A DNA stretch of 5,125 nt, from IMG/VR virus record IMGVR_UViG_2617270949_000004; one strand, written 5' to 3'. Origin of the DNA: a virus (taxonomy: Duplodnaviria; Heunggongvirae; Uroviricota; Caudoviricetes). The position numbers and the translations under genes are program-made. The notes under the pieces were generated by a model, which made no database searches, had not been told where the DNA came from, and saw nothing but the letters and a program-made list of their open reading frames with translations. This document shows, piece after piece, positions 1 through 5,125 of the stretch (position 1 is its first letter; each line of letters opens with the position of its first letter).

Positions 1-2399
1 ACGTATTTTGCCTGGTAACGGGCGTCATCAAGTGCATTATGGCGCTCACCTTCGAATGGAATAGCCGTTCTGGCATCGAAGTCTATGGCTTTCCCCAGCT
101 CAACGATTGTGCGTACATCGCGATCGTTGTAGTAACGCCACGGGCAGGGGATTCCCTGCCGTTCGTATGAACGGCGCAAAATCGTGTTGTCGAAGTTGGC
201 TCCATTTCCCCAGACCTGAACAAAAAATTCACCGGAGTTTTCGTCGATAAATTCCCGCAATTGTAACAGTGCATCATCTAACGGGATTTCATCGGTCATA
301 ATGGCAGATTGCGCTTCGCGTGATTGCTTAAGCCACCATTTAATGGTGTCCCGATCAATGACCCCGCCAGCAGTTTCCAGATCGATAGTCTTACTAAATT
401 CCGGTCCCATATCTCCGGTTTGCGGATCGAAAAATATTGCACCTATTGAGATGATCGGGGCATCAGGATTTTTTCCCATGGTTTCAAGGTCGATCATTAG
501 ATGGTCACACGTCCTGCTGGTGGATGTGATAATGTAATGATCGTTCACCGTAATTAAGGGATCTGCCGTCTCGCCAGTTTCACTATCGCTGGCGTGATCC
601 TGAGCGCTGCCAGCATTCTCCTTGTGTGGATGTTCAGCGCCTTCCATTTCCTTCGGATCATTTTCCTGAACTTCAACCTGATTCTCTTCATCGAATGTTT
701 CCTGGTATGTTGCGTCGCCCATCACCGCGCCACAATCAGGGCAGTTACCGCCGCCGGTCTGACCGCAGGCGGTGCAGACTTTTTCCACTTCCTGTTGCGC
801 CACTGGTTCAGGCTGTTTCGTTTCTGGCTCGTTTTGTTGCGTATTTGGGCTGTTTTGTTCCGCTTTCTGGTCGTTCTGTTCCGATTCTTGCTGGTTCTGG
901 TTTACAGAATCGCGGGTTTCAATCCCCTTTACCCATTTCGGATCATTCGGGTCGCTAATCCCTGCAACAAATTCTCCGCGAGAGGCAGCCAGTAATTTGT
1001 CTGCATCGACAGGATTTTTGGGCGGAATGTTTTTCCGGGCTTCATAGAGTTCTGCCCGCAGTTTCTGATATTTCGCATCAACAGAATTTACCTGTGACTG
1101 AGCATCCAGCGGCTGCGTGTCCTGATGATGTTCAGTTGCATCCGGTTCCACTGTTTCAGCCGTTGCCTGTTCATCTGCCATTGCGCAAGATGGTTGCAGT
1201 TTTTCTTCATCATCCTGTTTTTCTTCTTCTGTTACACGCTGCGGCATCGGGGCAGAGGAACGACCGCAGGCAATATCCACGATTTCTGGATCAGGGTTGG
1301 CATGATCAGTTTCAGTCAGTACTTTGTTAAGATATTCAGTGACGTGTGCGGGGATAACCTCGATCCCAATTGGTGCTTCTTTTACGGACGCAACCACGAT
1401 GGCGCGGGAATAATCCAGCCCGCCAGGCATGGTGATGAATTTGTCGCGGAAAACAGAAAAGGGCGGTTTATTTTCAGCGATAATTTCCTCGACACGTTTA
1501 GCGTGTGCCGGATGAAGGTTATAAATGTCCACGTCCATTGAACGAGCCAGTACGCCAGTGGCTACGTCGCGCGCCAGTGACGTCAGATCGTGAACGAAAC
1601 CTTCGCCGCGATCGGTGAGGTTCCCGCCGCCAGCATTAGCGCCGGAAGCCGTGCGCGTGATGCGTGAAACACGATTTCCTTTCATCCACTCTTTTGTCAG
1701 CAGACCGCGATCGGTGTAGTCTGCGTCCAGGTATGCTTCGAAAAAAGCAGTCATCAGCCCCAGGCTTGAATTGCCTGGATTAGGGAAAACTCTGTCAGTA
1801 TCACGCACCAGTTTGTGGAGATCGCGAATTTCCAGCGGGTCGAGCAGGCTGGTTTTGTGGGAAACAGCCAGGGCAGTAACAGCTGGTAGTTCTTCAGCTC
1901 GTGCAATGTGTAATGCCTGTAGTTCGTTGCGTGAAACGTGCGTTACCGGTTTTTCGCTGCCGTGTTGAGCAAGCCAGCGAATGGGCAGCTCCTGACCGGA
2001 AATCGGGAGTAGCATATTCTCCTCAATCTCCGTCATGTCTTCGCCATTAACATTGGTATTGTCAGTGCTGGCTGGCTTGTCCTGCGCAGAGGATGAGGGC
2101 GCGATAAATACCATTGTGATGCCATCTTCCCCGCCTTTTTCGTAACGGTTGCAGAATTCCGTATCAAATACGCCTTCTGGTGGAAGGTCATCAACAACGG
2201 GCAAATTGACGCGAACAGGTTTTTTAAAGTCATCTTCATCGTAGCCAGCATCGTCAATCGCAACAGCACCACGATAGATGGCAATGGATAATTTTTTCGC
2301 TTCAGCCCAGTAGAAACCGCCTTTAATACCGAGACGTTTTCTTACTTTGTCATTTTTTGCTTCGTAATACAGTGGGTAAACTTGTTTATCGGTGCTCAT
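1..2399 (-). CDS. recE: Exodeoxyribonuclease VIII-like (RecE-family) protein, 3' end beyond the window edge; about 800 codons visible. C-terminal part carries a CxxC-X9-CxxC zinc ribbon and a DnaQ-like DEDDh 3'-5' exonuclease domain
   Basis: Hand translation of the minus strand from ATG at 2399-2397 to position 3 gives a continuous frame with no stop. GAGG lies about 11 nt upstream of the ATG. Translation starts [36 protein letters not shown] and includes [44 protein letters not shown], then a Q/N/E-rich linker, [16 protein letters not shown] (about 730-774), then MIDLETMG (Exo I, about 480-497), VWGNGANFD (Exo II, about 190-215) and ERHNALDDA (Exo III, about 21-44). Sits immediately downstream of racC, as recE does in Rac. 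The ORF track omits it because it is incomplete in the window. The recE name rests on synteny and recalled N-terminal similarity, not on a search. Confidence 0.85.
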
Positions 2400-2469
2400 T
2401 GCTTTTTAACCTCAACTCAGATTAAAATTAATGCGAGTGATGAATAAATGTCCCAGGTTCTTCACTCAG

Positions 2470-2499
2470 GCCTGCACAGTGTGCAGGCTTTCTTTTTTT
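2470..2499 (+). terminator. Putative rho-independent terminator in plus-strand orientation, in the racC-recE intergenic region
   Basis: Perfect inverted repeat GCCTGCACA-G-TGTGCAGGC (2470-2488) followed directly by TTTCTTTTTTT (2489-2499). On the minus strand the same hairpin is preceded by an A-run and not followed by U's, so it works as a terminator only for plus-strand transcripts. Confidence 0.5.
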
Positions 2500-2774
2500 C
2501 AGATTTCACCTTTTAATTTCATTGCAATCAGAGTTGCCAGAAATTCGGCTTTTTTTTCTGCGGGCAGATTCTTTCCTATGTGCACCAGACACATTTTTTT
2601 AACACCATCGTTAAGTGTTTTAACGTTGCCTGTTGAACCGTCGATATCAACCACAGTGAATGGGGTTTCTTTATTTTCTGTTTTAATCACGTAGCCAATA
2701 CGTTTTCCCTCCAGGATAACTTCGAGCACAATGCCATCAGTAGTAACAATGGTGGCTTCATAACTGTTAATCAT
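2499..2774 (-). CDS. racC: RacC-like small prophage protein (91 aa)
   Basis: ORF starting at ATG 2774-2772 with AAGGAG about 7 nt upstream, stop TGA at 2501-2499. Product MINSYEATIVTTDGIVLEVILEGKRIGYVIKTENKETPFTVVDIDGSTGNVKTLNDGVKKMCLVHIGKNLPAEKKAEFLATLIAMKLKGEI. Length and position directly upstream of recE match Rac racC. The longer track ORF (start 2822) lacks an RBS and is not preferred. Confidence 0.8.
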   Translation of the reverse strand: MINSYEATIVTTDGIVLEVILEGKRIGYVIKTENKETPFTVVDIDGSTGNVKTLNDGVKKMCLVHIGKNLPAEKKAEFLATLIAMKLKGEI

Positions 2775-2848
2775 GTTTTTCTCCTTAATTAAGGTTGAGC
2801 GAATCTCTGCCATTGCTGGCATAAATTCAGTTTTGAATAGTCAGTTAA

Positions 2849-3136
2849 TTAAAGTTCGTGTGCCATCTGGTATTTTTCGGCGCATTGCTTACAGCAGTAT
2901 TTATGCTCCTTACGTGCAATAAGGGAACCGTGCATATAAATAATTTCAGCGGTAAAGGCTTTTTCAGGTTCAATTTGTTTATTACAGAGCGTATATGCAC
3001 AGGGAATTAAATCCGGGTCACCCTTTTGCTGGAGGATTTTTCTGATTCTCCACAGCCATTTTTTAATTCCGGTGTGACTGATGGTCTGCCTGGAGGCAGG
3101 CGTAAAACAATAATCAAGCATGGGGTTCATATCCAT
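2849..3136 (-). CDS. Small cysteine-rich zinc-ribbon protein in the ydaE position (YdaE-like); 95 aa, or 93 aa if it starts at the ATG at 3130
   Basis: Complete minus-strand ORF MDMNPMLDYCFTPASRQ...CAYTLCNKQIEPEKAFTAEIIYMHGSLIARKEHKYCCKQCAEKYQMAHEL, with a CxxxxC...CCxxC cysteine pattern. GGAG lies upstream of the start region. There is a 74 bp gap to racC and a 10 nt gap to the upstream Rha gene, consistent with one operon. Positional equivalent of ydaE/kilR in Rac. Confidence 0.6.
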   Translation of the reverse strand: MDMNPMLDYCFTPASRQTISHTGIKKWLWRIRKILQQKGDPDLIPCAYTLCNKQIEPEKAFTAEIIYMHGSLIARKEHKYCCKQCAEKYQMAHEL

Positions 3137-3146
3137 AGCTCCATTT

Positions 3147-3701
3147 TTATTTTAAGGAAAGCAACTGCTCTACGGTCATATTTTTAATTGCGCTCCGGTT
3201 TACAAGAGTCCAGCCTTGTTGCTCCAGATAAAACAGGAAGGTATCCAGGGTGCAGACCATTGCGCCGTCAGGAACGGTTTCAGTGAATTTGATATTGCCG
3301 TGTTCGTCGAGACGGATAACCAGGGTGCGTCCGTCCCCGTGAATCATTTTGTCGGGAGACGGGGCGTTATTCTGGCGCAGTTCAGCTTCCATGCGGTCGA
3401 ACTCAGCAATGTATGCCTCTTTAAATGCAGCGGCTTTTTTGCCAGTGAAGCCCATCACCAGGAAAACGAAGCCGTTTTTGGTGATTTGGTACATTGGGAG
3501 TTTGCGCCCGGTTGAGTCGGTGTATTCGCTCGACACAAAATTGTGCTCAGTGAATTTTGCTGAACAGTCCAGATTGCGAATTTTATCCAACACTCGTTCG
3601 TGGCGTTTGCCAAAGAACTCGGCGATCGCAACAGACGTAGTGACAGCGCGACCATTTTCGATGGTTACGTCAGGGTGAGAAAGGGTAAGGATAGTAGCCA
3701 T
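3147..3701 (-). CDS. Phage regulatory protein of the Rha family (antirepressor-like), about 184 aa
   Basis: Minus-strand ORF with start at ATG 3701-3699, preceded by GGAGG 8 nt upstream; stop at 3149-3147. N-terminus MATILTLSHPDVTIENGRAVTTSVAIAEFFGKRHERVLDKIRNLDCSAKFTEHNFVSSEYTDSTGRKLPMYQITKNGFVFLVMGFTGKKAAAFKEAYIAEFDRME fits the Rha-domain pattern (FGKRHxxVLxxIRNL ... Y.D..GR....Y.IT..GF..LVMGFTG.KA..FK..YI..F). The in-frame upstream extension to 3998 crosses a terminator hairpin and is considered less likely. Confidence 0.7.
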   Translation of the reverse strand: MATILTLSHPDVTIENGRAVTTSVAIAEFFGKRHERVLDKIRNLDCSAKFTEHNFVSSEYTDSTGRKLPMYQITKNGFVFLVMGFTGKKAAAFKEAYIAEFDRMEAELRQNNAPSPDKMIHGDGRTLVIRLDEHGNIKFTETVPDGAMVCTLDTFLFYLEQQGWTLVNRSAIKNMTVEQLLSLK

Positions 3702-3865
3702 GATGGCAGCCTCCGCGATGAATTTGATTAACTCACCACCGAGGTTTTCCACGACCATAAGGGTGGTGAGACGTACAGGGGTGGAAATACCGGTCATCAC
3801 GGAACCCGGCCAGCCTTGCGGCTGCCCTGCACGCCCCACCATAATGCGAATGTGGCTGTGCTTAA

Positions 3866-3898
3866 CGCATAAAAAAACCGCCTGAGCGCGGTTATGCG
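3866..3898 (-). terminator. Putative rho-independent terminator in minus-strand orientation, upstream of the Rha gene
   Basis: Minus-strand RNA would read CGCAUAA-CCGC-GCUCAG-GCGG-UUUUUUU-AUGCG: a GC stem (AACCGC/GCGGUU, loop GCUCAG) followed by a run of 6-7 U. Outer arms CGCATAA/TTATGCG add a larger imperfect palindrome. Confidence 0.5.
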
Positions 3899-4063
3899 CC
3901 GTGAATGATTTCGGGTTTCCACGCCCGGCACCCGTTTTATGAGGTGCAGGTGCACTATAATTCCACCCGTTCTGGTTTTCAATAGCTACATTCAACATTT
4001 TCTCTACCTTTCATCACCGAAGTGAACTTTGTTGATGCGGTGCCTGGTGCCTCCAGGTGATGT

Positions 4064-4084
4064 TAACCAGTTAACAATTAACGC
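4064..4084. repeat. Three closely spaced (G/A)TTAAC repeats (GTTAAC-CA-GTTAAC-AA-TTAAC); candidate protein-binding/operator-like site
   Basis: Direct reading: gttaac at 4064-4069 and 4072-4077 (each self-complementary), then attaac at 4079-4084; preceded by a CCTGG-N5-CCAGG inverted repeat at 4046-4060. No function can be assigned from sequence alone. Confidence 0.25.
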
Positions 4085-4554
4085 CGGATACAGAGAATCC
4101 ACCCATAACACTGTTTTTGGTTTTAACTGTTCCGCGTGCGCTGAGCCGCATTCACCGCATCACAAAATTCACTTTAAAAAGGGCGGCAGAGCAGTCACGG
4201 AGTAAAACTGATACCGCCAAAAGTCACCAGAAAATTGATAACAGAGGGCGTTGCAGCGGAGTTGTTACTTAAGCGTATGGTCAACCTGACAACCCGGTGT
4301 CCTCAACGGGGGAAGGAATACCCCCGCCATACTTACCGCCGCGCCATTTCGCGGAGTGCCACAACCGGAAGCGCACGGTCGAACTAAATTTAACGACACC
4401 GTACAGAGAGACCAATTTCGCCGTGCGCTTTCGCGTTATGCCCTGACTTTTCAGGGACATATCCTTTCAGTAAACTGTCAGTGCCGGATGTTCACCCGTG
4501 TCCGGCGCACGCACTCCACCTGACCCGTGGAGAACTCCTTAATTACCAACCCTC

Positions 4555-4560
4555 AGGAGG
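4555..4560 (+). promoter_or_regulatory. Shine-Dalgarno sequence AGGAGG for the downstream plus-strand ORF
   Basis: AGGAGG ends 5 nt before the ATG at 4566. Confidence 0.55.
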
Positions 4561-4565
4561 GTGAA

Positions 4566-4772
4566 ATGGATAAAAAGCAAATTGAGGCCCTGCAATCTAT
4601 TATTGAAAAACAAGATGAAGCTATCAGGATTCTTTCATATCGCACTGATATGATACTAAATATGCTTTCTGCATTAACGGCTGCGCTTGGTGGTACAAAA
4701 ACAAACGTATACCGCGAAGTTGTTATTCAACAGATAGATAAATTTGAAAAAACCATACCAGGTATTAGGTGA
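4566..4772 (+). CDS. Hypothetical prophage protein (68 aa as it stands), probably 3'-truncated by the IS1 insertion; sits where sieB lies in Rac
   Basis: ATG at 4566 with a strong RBS. Product MDKKQIEALQSIIEKQDEAIRILSYRTDMILNMLSALTAALGGTKTNVYREVVIQQIDKFEKTIPGIR. The last sense codon AGG spans the host/IS1 junction and the TGA stop (4770-4772) lies inside the IS1 left inverted repeat GGTGATG. The upstream GTG at 4527 used by the track is less likely. Confidence 0.55.
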   Translation: MDKKQIEALQSIIEKQDEAIRILSYRTDMILNMLSALTAALGGTKTNVYREVVIQQIDKFEKTIPGIR

Positions 4773-4790
4773 TGCTGCCAACTTACTGAT
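4768..4790 (+). repeat. IS1 left terminal inverted repeat (IRL)
   Basis: GGTGATGCTGCCAACTTACTGAT at the element boundary. The flanking host sequence is ...ACCATACCAGGTATTA; the target-site duplication cannot be confirmed without the right end. Confidence 0.9.
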
Positions 4791-4822
4791 TTAGTGTATG
4801 ATGGTGTTTTTGAGGTGCTCCA

Positions 4823-5098
4823 GTGGCTTCTGTTTCTATCAGCTGTCCCTCCTGTTCAGCTACTGACGGGGTGGTGCGTAACGGCAAAAGCACTGCCGGA
4901 CATCAGCGCTATCTCTGCTCTCACTGCCGTAAAACATGGCAACTGCAGTTCACTTACACCGCTTCTCAACCCGGTACGCACCAGAAAATCATTGATATGG
5001 CCATGAATGGCGTTGGATGCCGGGCAACCGCCCGCATTATGGGCGTTGGCCTCAACACGATTTTCCGCCATTTAAAAAACTCAGGCCGCAGTCGGTAA
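4823..5098 (+). CDS. insA: IS1 InsA (transposition regulator, N-terminal part of the InsAB' transposase), 91 aa
   Basis: GTG start at 4823, stop TAA at 5096-5098. Product [91 protein letters not shown], with a zinc-finger CxxC...CxxC and a helix-turn-helix region. Confidence 0.95.
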
Positions 5099-5125
5099 CC
5101 TCGCGCATACAGCCGGGCAGTGACG
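5017..5125 (+). CDS. insB: IS1 InsB (transposase catalytic part), 5' portion only; continues beyond the window
   Basis: ATG at 5017 in the -1 frame relative to insA, at IS1 position 250. Translation [36 protein letters not shown]... is open to the window end. Confidence 0.85.
5072..5080 (+). promoter_or_regulatory. IS1 programmed -1 ribosomal frameshift site (TTAAAAAAC, A6C motif) producing the InsAB' transposase
   Basis: TTAAAAAAC lies in the insA frame just before its stop, in the insA/insB overlap, as in IS1. Confidence 0.8.

Follow-up and report, generated by a model that had tools for sequence, protein, structure and literature searches.

We find that the rha gene of a Rac-like prophage is probably an RNA-gated antirepressor gene, controlled by an isrK-C4 switch and lying beside a long form of ydaE, which is the best overall explanation for this part of the window (the whole 5,125-nucleotide stretch of viral DNA analyzed here). 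Both genes of the interval are genuine and belong to the early-left operon of a Rac-like lambdoid E. coli prophage, which adjoins ompW. As a sequence-only reading had described them, these are a 95-aa cysteine-rich ORF (2849-3136) and a 184-aa Rha ORF (3147-3701), both on the minus strand upstream of racC, and in the ORF listing a 10-nt spacer (3137-3146) separates ATG 3136 from the rha stop codon (3147-3149). That reading took the pair for a mosaic replacement of the kil function by an uncharacterised module. Public annotation already has names for both genes, the locus is a case of normal lambdoid mosaicism, and the rha cassette belongs to a type that is controlled by IsrK and C4 RNAs and has been studied in phage P1 and Gifsy-1 (Table 1).

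The gene order that had been given for K-12 Rac (racC-ydaE-kilR) was correct, and comparison with the Rac kilR-ydaE locus placed mosaic breakpoints at window positions 2885 and ~4022. Rac homology spans racC, whose homologue here has high DNA identity to K-12 racC, to the final ~35 nt of ydaE (up to window position 2885; 2849-2885 are Rac-identical), and returns upstream at ~4022-4190, which corresponds to the K-12 stretch upstream of kilR, including kilS. Therefore ~1.1 kb (2886-4021) stands in place of ~0.4 kb in K-12 (kilR plus most of ydaE), and kilR is, as had been noted, absent from its slot. The locus is, as the alignments indicate, a three-piece mosaic consisting of a Rac-like part (≤2885), a rare ydaE-long piece (2886-~3160), and a common isrK-C4-rha cassette (~3160-~4021), with the junction at ~3160 falling within the 3′ end of rha. 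The region was matched in 834 of 5426 complete E. coli genomes, and most of these 834 carry the rha segment. In the upstream flank, a candidate STnc100 element (4028-4169) was rejected as below the Rfam threshold (32.3 bits vs 47). PGAP annotations were taken from a genome 99.9% identical to the window.

Table 1. Features of the rha-ydaE-long interval and its flanks, in window coordinates
Feature	Position	Strand	Evidence
racC homologue, 91 aa, downstream neighbor	2499..2774	-	NF007306 182.7 bits, cut-off 171; PGAP CDS
ydaE-long, 95-aa ORF (probable start ATG 3130, giving 93 aa)	2849..3136	-	phrog_6751 full-length, 9e-43; PGAP 'YdaE family protein'
Putative YdaE zinc-binding domain, residues 44-95, plus stop codon	2849..3007	-	NF041288 YdaE_coli 76.2 bits, cut-off 35, profile 1-50/50
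YdaE N-terminal extension, residues 1-43	3008..3136	-	Homologous to separate small ORFs in Gifsy-1, PHB10
rha, 184 aa, RNA-switch payload	3147..3701	-	Pfam Phage_pRha 5e-31; SD GGAGG + ATG homologous to anrP start
Rha C-terminal domain, AnrP-type, residues ~115-184	3150..3359	-	hhalign vs AnrP-type payload C-termini: 96.8%, E 2.6e-10
Rha N-terminal domain, residues ~10-111	3369..3674	-	KilA-N/APSES/Bro-N-like fold
b2 target site (3721-3713), overlapping rha Shine-Dalgarno GGAGG (3714-3710)	3710..3721	-	Pairs with C4 b′
a2 target site GUGGAAA	3746..3752	-	Complementary to a′ UUUCCAC
C4-type antisense RNA, with b′ (3802-3794) and a′ (3787-3781)	3759..3846	-	Rfam RF01695 81.9 bits, gathering score 45, E 1.3e-15, model 1-87/87
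IsrK-type sRNA, with a1 (3922-3916), b1 (3908-3899), and intrinsic terminator	3871..3947	-	Rfam RF01394 67.7 bits, gathering score 50, full length
Predicted sigma-70 isrK promoter (TTGAAA, 17 nt, TATAGT)	3954..3982	-	10/12 consensus match
Upstream context, homologous to K-12 Rac kilS region; mosaic breakpoint ~4022	4022..4232	-	Alignment with K-12
dicB-fragment pseudogene	4028-4111	-	PGAP
DicF sRNA, full copy	4181-4232	-	Rfam DicF 75.8 bits, above gathering score

The stretch upstream of rha contains a series of RNA elements, and these, their complementarity, and the covariation, start site, and domain homologies described below were all observed in silico. In the predicted isrK promoter, the −10 box stops 7 nt short of the 5′ end of the Rfam isrK match, and a TTGA..-type −35 box aligns at the promoter position in the related cassettes displayed. 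The sRNA itself is homologous to Gifsy-1 isrK, and a terminator scan placed its terminator at a stem (3893-3876) followed by a T run. Within the C4-type RNA lies the start codon (AUG 3842-3840) of an ORF that begins upstream of rha and shares its frame. Contiguous pairing in the window amounts to 7 nt for a′-a1, 7 nt for a′-a2, 6 nt for b′-b1, and 11 nt for b′-b2, the last of these joining C4 3804-3794 to mRNA 3721-3711 (G-U pairs included) and reaching into the GGAG of the Shine-Dalgarno (SD) sequence. There is no ORF between b2 and rha, and b2 abuts the rha SD. The Rfam c4-a1b1 model scored below threshold at this locus (25.7 vs 46.7). The sequence-only reading did not mention an RNA switch upstream of rha.

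In a set of 88 related cassettes, a and b sites show three-way covariation (b2 with both b′ and b1), and 51 distinct C4 cores are accompanied by matching a1/a2 and b1/b2 sites. Contiguous pairing in these cassettes was longer for cognate than for non-cognate combinations at every site, both for a′ (6.7 vs 3.8 nt with a1 and 7.15 vs 4.6 nt with a2) and for b′ (8.8 vs 5.5 with b1 and 10.0 vs 6.4 with b2). We used these explicit a/b pairing counts instead of whole-region duplex energies (cognate vs non-cognate, −37.7 vs −30.4 and −43.1 vs −36.0 kcal/mol), which are too coarse because stems are included. The C4 fold is paired in 99.6% of cells, with 5/5 compensatory pairs in hairpin 1 (0/500 shuffles). 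At least 20 a/b specificity variants occur, in at least 43 a × b combinations, and the N-domains of the payloads are the classic antirepressor types Rha, ORF6N (as in AnrP), AntA, and Bro-N.

How such a switch might work at this locus can be outlined with an order of events, an antirepressor activity, and a target that are carried over from Gifsy-1 and P1. Transcription from the predicted sigma-70 promoter would yield a short IsrK sRNA ending at a leaky terminator, with read-through transcripts containing the C4-type antisense RNA. The single-stranded a′ and b′ segments of C4 would pair with a2 and b2 and, since b2 overlaps the rha SD, C4 would block rha translation. The a1 and b1 sites on IsrK would act as decoys, such that abundant IsrK titrates C4 or remodels the leader and rha translation is released, after which a prophage repressor would most probably be the target of Rha as an antirepressor-like inducer, comparable to AnrP of Gifsy-1 and Ant of P1. 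Some local features may modify this scheme. The Rha N-domain, of a DNA-binding fold type, shares no sequence homology with the ORF6N domain of AnrP or with P1 Ant, and DNA rather than a repressor could be what Rha acts on. The reading frame of the upstream ORF continues into rha, unlike in Gifsy-1, and the coupling mechanism may thus differ. The cassette is also inside the early-left operon, unlike in Gifsy-1 (after antQ) or P1, so that transcripts reading through from PL could get around the switch or change its behavior.

The start of rha at ATG 3701 is backed by a GGAGG 8 nt upstream, and in alignments this SD and ATG coincide with the start annotated for Gifsy-1 anrP and with the payload starts in the 88 related cassettes. 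In the ORF listing, ATG 3701 is internal to a 283-aa ORF (3147..3998, minus strand), and a very unlikely alternative is that this ORF, as given by PGAP, Pfam, and PHROGs, is a real two-domain Ash-Rha gene, the “RNA genes” being merely conserved coding sequence. Such a gene would account for the 283 uninterrupted codons, the Pfam Phage_ASH match on residues 14-109 (2e-16), the full-length phrog_995 match, and the database homologues, most of the 120 listed being called at 282-284 aa, and it would fit a frame from the C4-internal AUG that is stop-free in 53/53 Rha-type cassettes vs 0/53 in both other frames (shuffle P~2e-4). However, the predicted isrK promoter is downstream of ATG 3998, an intrinsic terminator falls inside the ORF, and two Rfam families are matched within it at full length and above threshold. 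Leader variation consists of compensatory base-pair changes with no codon periodicity or third-position excess (0.176/0.147/0.133), and the variable blocks of the leader track RNA complementarity. Further, an identical leader type precedes unrelated payloads out of frame (in-frame and open in 1/35 only), whereas the SD and ATG at 3701 are kept across all payload types. The public 282-284-aa gene model (“Ash” plus Rha) and the Phage_ASH match seem to result from reading through a promoter, a pair of RNA genes, and a terminator. A shorter upstream start is another matter: the leader ORF from the C4-internal AUG (~47 codons) is in frame with rha and without a stop in 51/53 Rha-type cassettes (its frame being stop-free in 53/53), and a 231-aa isoform from AUG 3842 is plausible, if still on the doubtful side of even; it fits the RNA-gated antirepressor explanation too and may be the main product. 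Separately, the Pfam “Ash” family that matches the leader was also noted, at the DNA level, for an ORF of a P2-like phage that bears the annotation “similar to ash family protein.”

The assignment of the larger ORF to the Rha family, already made in the sequence-only reading, was confirmed by PF09669 Phage_pRha (107.5 bits, cut-off 29.9, profile 1-90/91) and TIGR02681 (107.9 bits, cut-off 45.95, profile 3-107/108). It is a very large family, with 10,112 representative clusters (E≤1e-3). Its founders, from phages phi80 and P22, were defined by a phenotype, namely interference with phage growth in IHF-deficient hosts; the N-domain here matches the family models far above threshold. Rha was modelled with AlphaFold2 (mean pLDDT 84.4); its N-domain has a predicted fold of the DNA-binding KilA-N/APSES/Bro-N class and is followed by a long helix and a C-domain that by profile comparison is homologous to that of AnrP. 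The C-domain shares 46.6% identity with the C-terminal part of ORF6N-type payloads and is a swappable module, common to just 18/53 Rha-type payloads. Similarity between Rha and AnrP is confined to the C-terminus, the Rha N-domain showing no sequence homology to the AnrP ORF6N domain, and comparison of Rha with P1 Ant1 gave no similarity. PHROG matches of the C-domain were to phrog_25059 and phrog_2379, “anti-repressor.” Sequence searches of solved structures with Rha and ydaE-long returned only a chance L6 match (E 0.77) and a designed coiled coil on the amphipathic helix (E 0.12), and a literature search for Rha tied to C4 or IsrK returned nothing specific.

The smaller gene was not the new module it had been taken for: database searches identified the 95-aa ORF as a ydaE homologue, a diverged, N-extended ydaE allele that was retained at the locus. 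Its likelier start is the third codon, ATG 3130, giving a product of 93 aa and a gap of 16 nt to rha; we prefer this start because a GGAG lies 8 nt upstream of ATG 3130 and merely 2 nt upstream of ATG 3136, and because 6/10 homologue clusters begin MNPMLDYCF. The description of the ORF as cysteine-rich and probably zinc-binding was borne out, as it has six cysteines (C10, C46, C51, C81, C82, and C85), four of which (C46/C51/C81/C85, in a C-x4-C ... C-x3-C arrangement presumed to be the zinc site) are invariant in 11 long-form homologues and align with C7, C12, C42, and C46 of K-12 YdaE. Homologues fall into ten clusters of 93-95 aa with 68-93% identity. Compared with K-12 Rac ydaE (56 aa, “zinc-binding protein”), the gene shares the four cysteines (within the conserved CAY.LC...KYC..CAEK.QMAHEL pattern), the C-terminal QMAHEL, the slot directly upstream of racC, and the nearly identical last ~35 nt, whereas its domain body has diverged to about 50% aa identity to Rac-type YdaE. 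A weak Pfam match of the domain to Rtr1/RPAP2 (E 2.5e-4, 21.7 bits vs cut-off 33) was set aside as a shared zinc-finger-like pattern.

What sets the long form apart is its conserved 41-43-aa N-terminal extension, by which ydaE-long (93-95 aa) exceeds the size of single-domain YdaE (~50-56 aa); K-12 ydaE lacks it and has kilR, unrelated to the extension, in that place. Long and short forms belong to separate PHROGs (phrog_6751, 94 aa, and phrog_1520, 53 aa). The extension has a predicted amphipathic helix at residues 22-38, is as conserved among long forms as the zinc domain, and matches a small ORF that overlaps ydaE from upstream in Gifsy-1 (38% identity, E 2e-9) and phage PHB10 (E 1e-7). Sequence comparison therefore identifies ydaE-long as a probable in-frame fusion joining a ~40-aa helical peptide to the 4-Cys YdaE domain, and such a fusion argues that both parts act together. 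In Gifsy-1/-2 and PHB10 the peptide has its own gene, which overlaps ydaE translationally; the split pair in Gifsy-1 is STM2630.1n and STM2630. The AlphaFold2 model of ydaE-long was poor (pLDDT 48, 11-sequence alignment), and a literature search for YdaE function returned nothing specific.

It is improbable that the 95-aa protein and Rha together form an uncharacterised module that replaces KilR and brings a new host-killing or division-inhibiting function to the kil slot, even though kilR is missing and the segment sits exactly at the K-12 Rac kilR-ydaE position. The slot directly after the rha cassette holds division inhibitors (kil, dicB) elsewhere, the YdaE N-extension lies at this small-toxic-gene position, and the 1-nt overlap of K-12 kilR with ydaE resembles the small ORF/ydaE overlap in Gifsy-1. 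However, homologous rha cassettes occur directly upstream of intact kil in strain TUM1886 and upstream of intact dicB plus DUF1482 in strain C311, which argues for an independent module and no kil substitute; K-12 has YdaE and KilR together; BLASTP of the 95-aa protein and its N-extension against K-12 KilR found no similarity (E 0.5); and the Kil family was absent from the Pfam (no Lambda_Kil at E≤1), NCBIfam, and PHROG matches of the 95-aa protein. The mosaic part of the original proposal stands with respect to K-12 Rac, but Rha as a substitute for kil does not. Unlikely, though considerably less so, is that Rha works as a sequence-specific DNA-binding transcription factor acting directly on phage or host promoters, as the public annotation “Rha family transcriptional regulator” would have it; the payload domains of this type of RNA cassette (ANT in P1, AntA, ORF6N, Bro-N) belong to proteins that are proven antirepressors or named as such, and the Rha C-domain is common to AnrP. 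DNA-binding and antirepressor mechanisms are in any case compatible with each other.

The RNA-gated antirepressor explanation can be extended, on a doubtful footing, to a leader that is both an RNA switch and a coded N-terminal leader of Rha (231/184-aa isoforms, comparable to P1 Ant1/Ant2), to an a × b code that provides orthogonal antirepressor switches in polylysogens, and to a YdaE N-extension, holding the slot of kil/dicB in sister prophages, that would constitute a novel small effector aimed at the host and fused to a zinc-binding partner. The rha gene is present in hundreds of complete E. coli genomes. Rha proteins are usually vaguely annotated as “regulators,” and recognizing a large E. 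coli/Shigella/Salmonella group of them as IsrK/C4 payloads with an AnrP-type C-domain gives a testable role, that of an RNA-gated antirepressor. Further, the apparent read-through gene model (282-284 aa) affects many database entries, and a diverse, co-varying a/b code could explain separate induction switches of prophages that share one cell.

Among the closest known systems is the isrK-orf45-anrP locus of Salmonella Gifsy-1 (Hershko-Shalev et al. 2016, PMC4825925), where experiments showed a rise of about 140-fold in payload translation with IsrK provided in trans and induction of the prophage by AnrP (PMC4825925). The leader here is homologous to it end to end, comprising IsrK and its terminator, a C4-like element (the STnc1160/orf45 region), a2/b2, and the payload SD and ATG, and in both loci the a1/b1 decoys are on a short sRNA and the payload C-domains are homologous. 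Differences include the payload N-domain (ORF6N in Gifsy-1, Rha here), the a/b specificity sequences, and the upstream ORF, which in Gifsy-1 and some other ORF6N-type cassettes ends in an AUGA overlap and here continues in frame into rha with no stop. The Gifsy-1 cassette is downstream of the late antiterminator gene antQ, whereas that described here belongs to the early-left operon, flanked by DicF and the kil slot.

The immI locus of P1/P7 (c4 - icd - ant1/ant2) has a C4 antisense RNA of the same Rfam family, the same order of a1, b1, C4, a2, and b2, with b2 beside the ribosome-binding site of the first ORF, and an antirepressor payload; specificity is set by its a/b sequences, as is reported for the heteroimmunity of P1 vs P7 (Citron and Schuster 1990). 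Unlike the rha locus, P1 immI has icd between b2 and the payload, its Ant protein has an ANT/KilAC domain (Ant1 has PF03374 ANT only) and no similarity to Rha, and no terminated IsrK-like sRNA is annotated. The P1 operon promoter is under a C1 operator. A further parallel is the CI RNA of satellite phage P4 (seqA/seqC), a processed antisense RNA that likewise pairs with repeats on either side of itself, and IsrK was called a structural homologue of P4 SeqA by the Gifsy-1 authors (PMC4825925). P4 CI acts through premature transcription termination of replication genes and has a different payload; here, unlike in P4, b2 lies over an SD, which points to translational control.

The sequence-only reading had described a cysteine-rich zinc-ribbon gene beside a Rha-family gene and taken the pair for a mosaic replacement of the kil function; the observation of both genes was confirmed, while the interpretation as a whole was only partly supported. 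On the minus strand, the ORF list holds a 95-aa ORF (ydaE-long, 2849-3136; 6 Cys) and a 283-aa ORF (3147-3998) whose internal ATG at 3701 gives the 184-aa Rha protein (Pfam 5e-31, TIGR02681 107.9 bits), with the 10-nt gap between the two genes borne out by the ORF coordinates. The K-12 Rac order given in the sequence-only reading, racC-ydaE-kilR, also agrees with the annotated K-12 record.

Over positions 1-4767 the window matches four complete E. coli chromosomes at 99.8-99.9% identity, and in strain 600029 the matching segment lies inside a lambdoid prophage whose integration adjoins ompW and whose gene order is int, xis, RecE-like exonuclease, racC-like, 'YdaE family protein', 'Rha family phage regulatory protein', a dicB fragment and, further on, racR with ydaS/ydaT-like genes. 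The two genes in question, like their neighbours in the operon, are read from the minus strand and are part of the early-left operon. An IS1 occupies the window from 4768 to its end (4768-5125), with an InsA-like ORF (4823-5098) that matches IS1 transposase models, and is the cause of tens of thousands of partial genome matches; homology to other E. coli genomes stops at 4767, and the insertion cuts short a hypothetical gene with an intact counterpart in strain 600029 (L001 12566-12844). Downstream of a DicF copy, the segment 4022-4190 has its homologue in the part of K-12 Rac that lies 5' of kilR and carries the sRNA KilS annotation; PGAP annotates 4028-4111 as a dicB fragment, its translation being without obvious DicB resemblance.

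Comparison with K-12 Rac, proposed in the sequence-only reading, did place the mosaic breakpoints: identity stays high from racC across the terminal ~35 nt of ydaE (window <=2885), is gone across the ydaE-long body and the entire rha cassette, and resumes at ~4022-4190, 5' of K-12 kilR and including kilS, with an additional junction at ~3160, the rha 3' end, within the replaced 1.1 kb. Of 5426 complete genomes, 834 match the region, and most of these have the rha segment; rha together with ydaE-long occurs in only 17. That Rha replaces Kil is contradicted by related cassettes that precede intact kil (TUM1886, L206 4028-5146) or dicB plus a DUF1482 gene (C311, L207 3951-5204); rha is therefore an independent cassette upstream of a variable 'host-interference' slot, occupied in the window by ydaE-long. 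Directly after the rha cassette, this slot holds kil, dicB+DUF1482 or, in the window, ydaE-long+racC, which makes it a hot spot where small host-directed genes are exchanged by recombination.

Nor does the 95-aa gene fall outside the ydaE family: residues 44-95 span the full YdaE_coli profile (NCBIfam, 76.2 bits, cut-off 35) and share CAY.LC, MHG and KYC..CAEK.QMAHEL with K-12 YdaE in an alignment. The whole protein matches the 94-aa phrog_6751 end to end (9e-43), the short YdaE form being a separate PHROG, and a database search gave ten clusters of homologues (93-95 aa, 68-93% identity) from E. coli, Shigella, and Salmonella. Across these ten long-form clusters conservation of the first 43 residues equals that of the zinc domain, so this extension is expressed as protein and maintained by selection. 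A start at the third codon (MNPMLDYCF) in 6/10 clusters and a GGAG 8 nt upstream of the corresponding ATG 3130 together point to 93 rather than 95 aa as the likelier product. By tblastn against phages, the extension has its counterpart in an ORF of its own (38-51 aa; pairwise E 2e-9 for Gifsy-1 and 1e-7 for PHB10) in Gifsy-1, Gifsy-2 and coliphage PHB10, which shares 8 nt with the ydaE start in a different frame (Gifsy-1, L003 4889-5156; PHB10, L004 2962-3274), so the window gene is an in-frame fusion of two adjoining genes, which are probably co-translated. In K-12 Rac this position is taken by kilR, which is unrelated to the extension and has 1 nt in common with ydaE, and ydaE seems always linked in translation to a small gene just upstream (Gifsy-1, PHB10, K-12 Rac). 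Pairwise comparison found no relationship of the 95-aa protein to KilR, no relatives were found among solved structures and no paper on YdaE function in the literature, and structure prediction was too weak for use.

Elements of the rha leader and the DicF copy upstream of it (window positions)
Feature	Position	Strand	Remark
DicF sRNA, full length	4232-4181	minus	Rfam, 75.8 bits
Predicted sigma-70-like promoter TTGAAA-17-TATAGT	3982-3954	minus	ends 7 nt 5' of IsrK 5' end
IsrK sRNA, full length	3947-3871	minus	Rfam, 67.7 bits
a1 GUGGAAA	3922-3916	minus	in IsrK
b1 UCAUUCACGG	3908-3899	minus	in IsrK
IsrK terminator	3893-3869	minus	terminator scan
C4 antisense RNA, full length	3846-3759	minus	Rfam, 81.9 bits
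b' CCGUGAUGA	3802-3794	minus	in C4
a' UUUCCAC	3787-3781	minus	in C4
a2 GUGGAAA	3752-3746	minus	
b2 UCAUCGCGG	3721-3713	minus	extends into rha GGAGG

Between C4 3804-3794 and 3721-3711, 11 contiguous pairs are possible. Within 3731-3770 (minus strand), a conserved GGUGGUGAG just 3' of a2 is complementary to CUCACCACC, which forms the 3' side of the stem closing C4; an alternative hairpin here could show a2 in its loop, reminiscent of alternative structures A and B of Gifsy-1.

These elements bear on where rha begins. The 283-aa ORF is the gene call of PGAP, PHROGs and most database entries, and its first 99 residues match Pfam 'Ash' (PF10554 Phage_ASH), but the full 283-aa protein is not plausible as a real product: its ATG 3998 sits upstream of the predicted isrK promoter, and the IsrK terminator falls within what would be coding sequence. 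The CGGAGG and ATG at the payload start are common to the window and Gifsy-1 anrP in an alignment, which establishes ATG 3701 as a genuine rha start, and the 'Ash' similarity looks like translated conservation of RNA genes rather than a protein domain. At 3702-3998 (minus strand), promoter, IsrK, terminator, C4 and a2/b2 all fall under the public 282-284-aa 'Rha family' gene models, under phrog_995 in its N-terminal part, and under the PF10554 match.

A shorter extension of rha fares better. An AUG at 3842, inside C4, is in frame with rha with no intervening stop (46-47 codons, 3702-3842, minus strand); such an in-frame, uninterrupted AUG occurs in 51/53 distinct Rha-type cassettes versus 1/35 others. 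All 53/53 Rha-type cassettes lack stops in frame 0, against 0/53 for either of the remaining frames; when the variable b2 cores were shuffled, the chance of this outcome came to ~2e-4, a rough figure as lineages are not independent. In Gifsy-1 the homologous AUG opens orf45 (AUG GUG GGG CGU AUG...), whose UGA end overlaps the anrP AUG, whereas that of the window runs into rha. The stop-free frame suggests a translated leader or a long 231-aa Rha isoform, the latter, comparable to P1 Ant1 versus Ant2, being plausible. In cassettes with non-Rha payloads this frame is often closed, and the Rha-type frame is preserved where the a2 region differs in length by 3 nt.

Related cassettes gathered from IMG/VR and Gifsy-1 comprised 91 distinct sequences, whose variable parts are the a and b blocks, co-changing at all three places. 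Contiguous pairing was greater for cognate than non-cognate partners in all four interactions (a'-a1, 6.7 vs 3.8; a'-a2, 7.15 vs 4.6; b'-b1, 8.8 vs 5.5; b'-b2, 10.0 vs 6.4). The C4 fold is paired in 99.6% over 35 distinct sequences, 5/5 pairs of hairpin 1 are altered on both sides, with covariation unmatched by any shuffle, and variability has no third-codon-position excess. With 43 different pairings of 15 a' variants and 38 b' variants (88 cassettes), the a/b recognition sites form a combinatorial code (L005-L205, L085; window 3713-3922), which may hold switches of co-resident prophages orthogonal.

Payload N-terminal domains in these cassettes are Rha, ORF6N (AnrP), AntA or Bro-N, a set typical of phage antirepressors. 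C-terminal domains shuffle independently: that of the window occurs in only 18/53 Rha-type payloads, is 46.6% identical in some ORF6N payloads, and matches the C-terminal domain of AnrP-type proteins in a profile comparison (probability 96.8%, E 2.6e-10). The AlphaFold2 model of Rha (pLDDT 84.4) has three parts, including a long helix and a small beta-alpha C-domain, and the nearest viral predicted structures bear the names regulatory protein, antirepressor, Bro-N and KilA-N. We infer that Rha works as an antirepressor-like inducer under RNA gating; it may act by binding DNA directly. Some C4 cassettes (for example L092, L104 and L115) carry a small payload (MANRKQ..., 75-77 aa), not antirepressor-sized, with a weak sub-threshold match to the Pfam 'Derepression protein family' (22.1 bits vs 27).

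The locus belongs to known kinds, namely the YdaE family, the Rha family and IsrK/C4-controlled antirepressor cassettes. Three features add somewhat to its importance: the problem with the gene model, the in-frame leader and how broad the a/b specificity code is. The P1 record annotates a1, b1, c4, a2, b2 and then the first ORF, the same layout as in the window, and the window leader aligns with Gifsy-1 isrK-orf45-anrP as homologous throughout. Experiments in Gifsy-1 showed that the read-through transcript is a trans target of short IsrK, which switches on payload translation about 140-fold, and that AnrP in turn increases transcription of the antQ operon and sets off prophage induction (PMC4825925).
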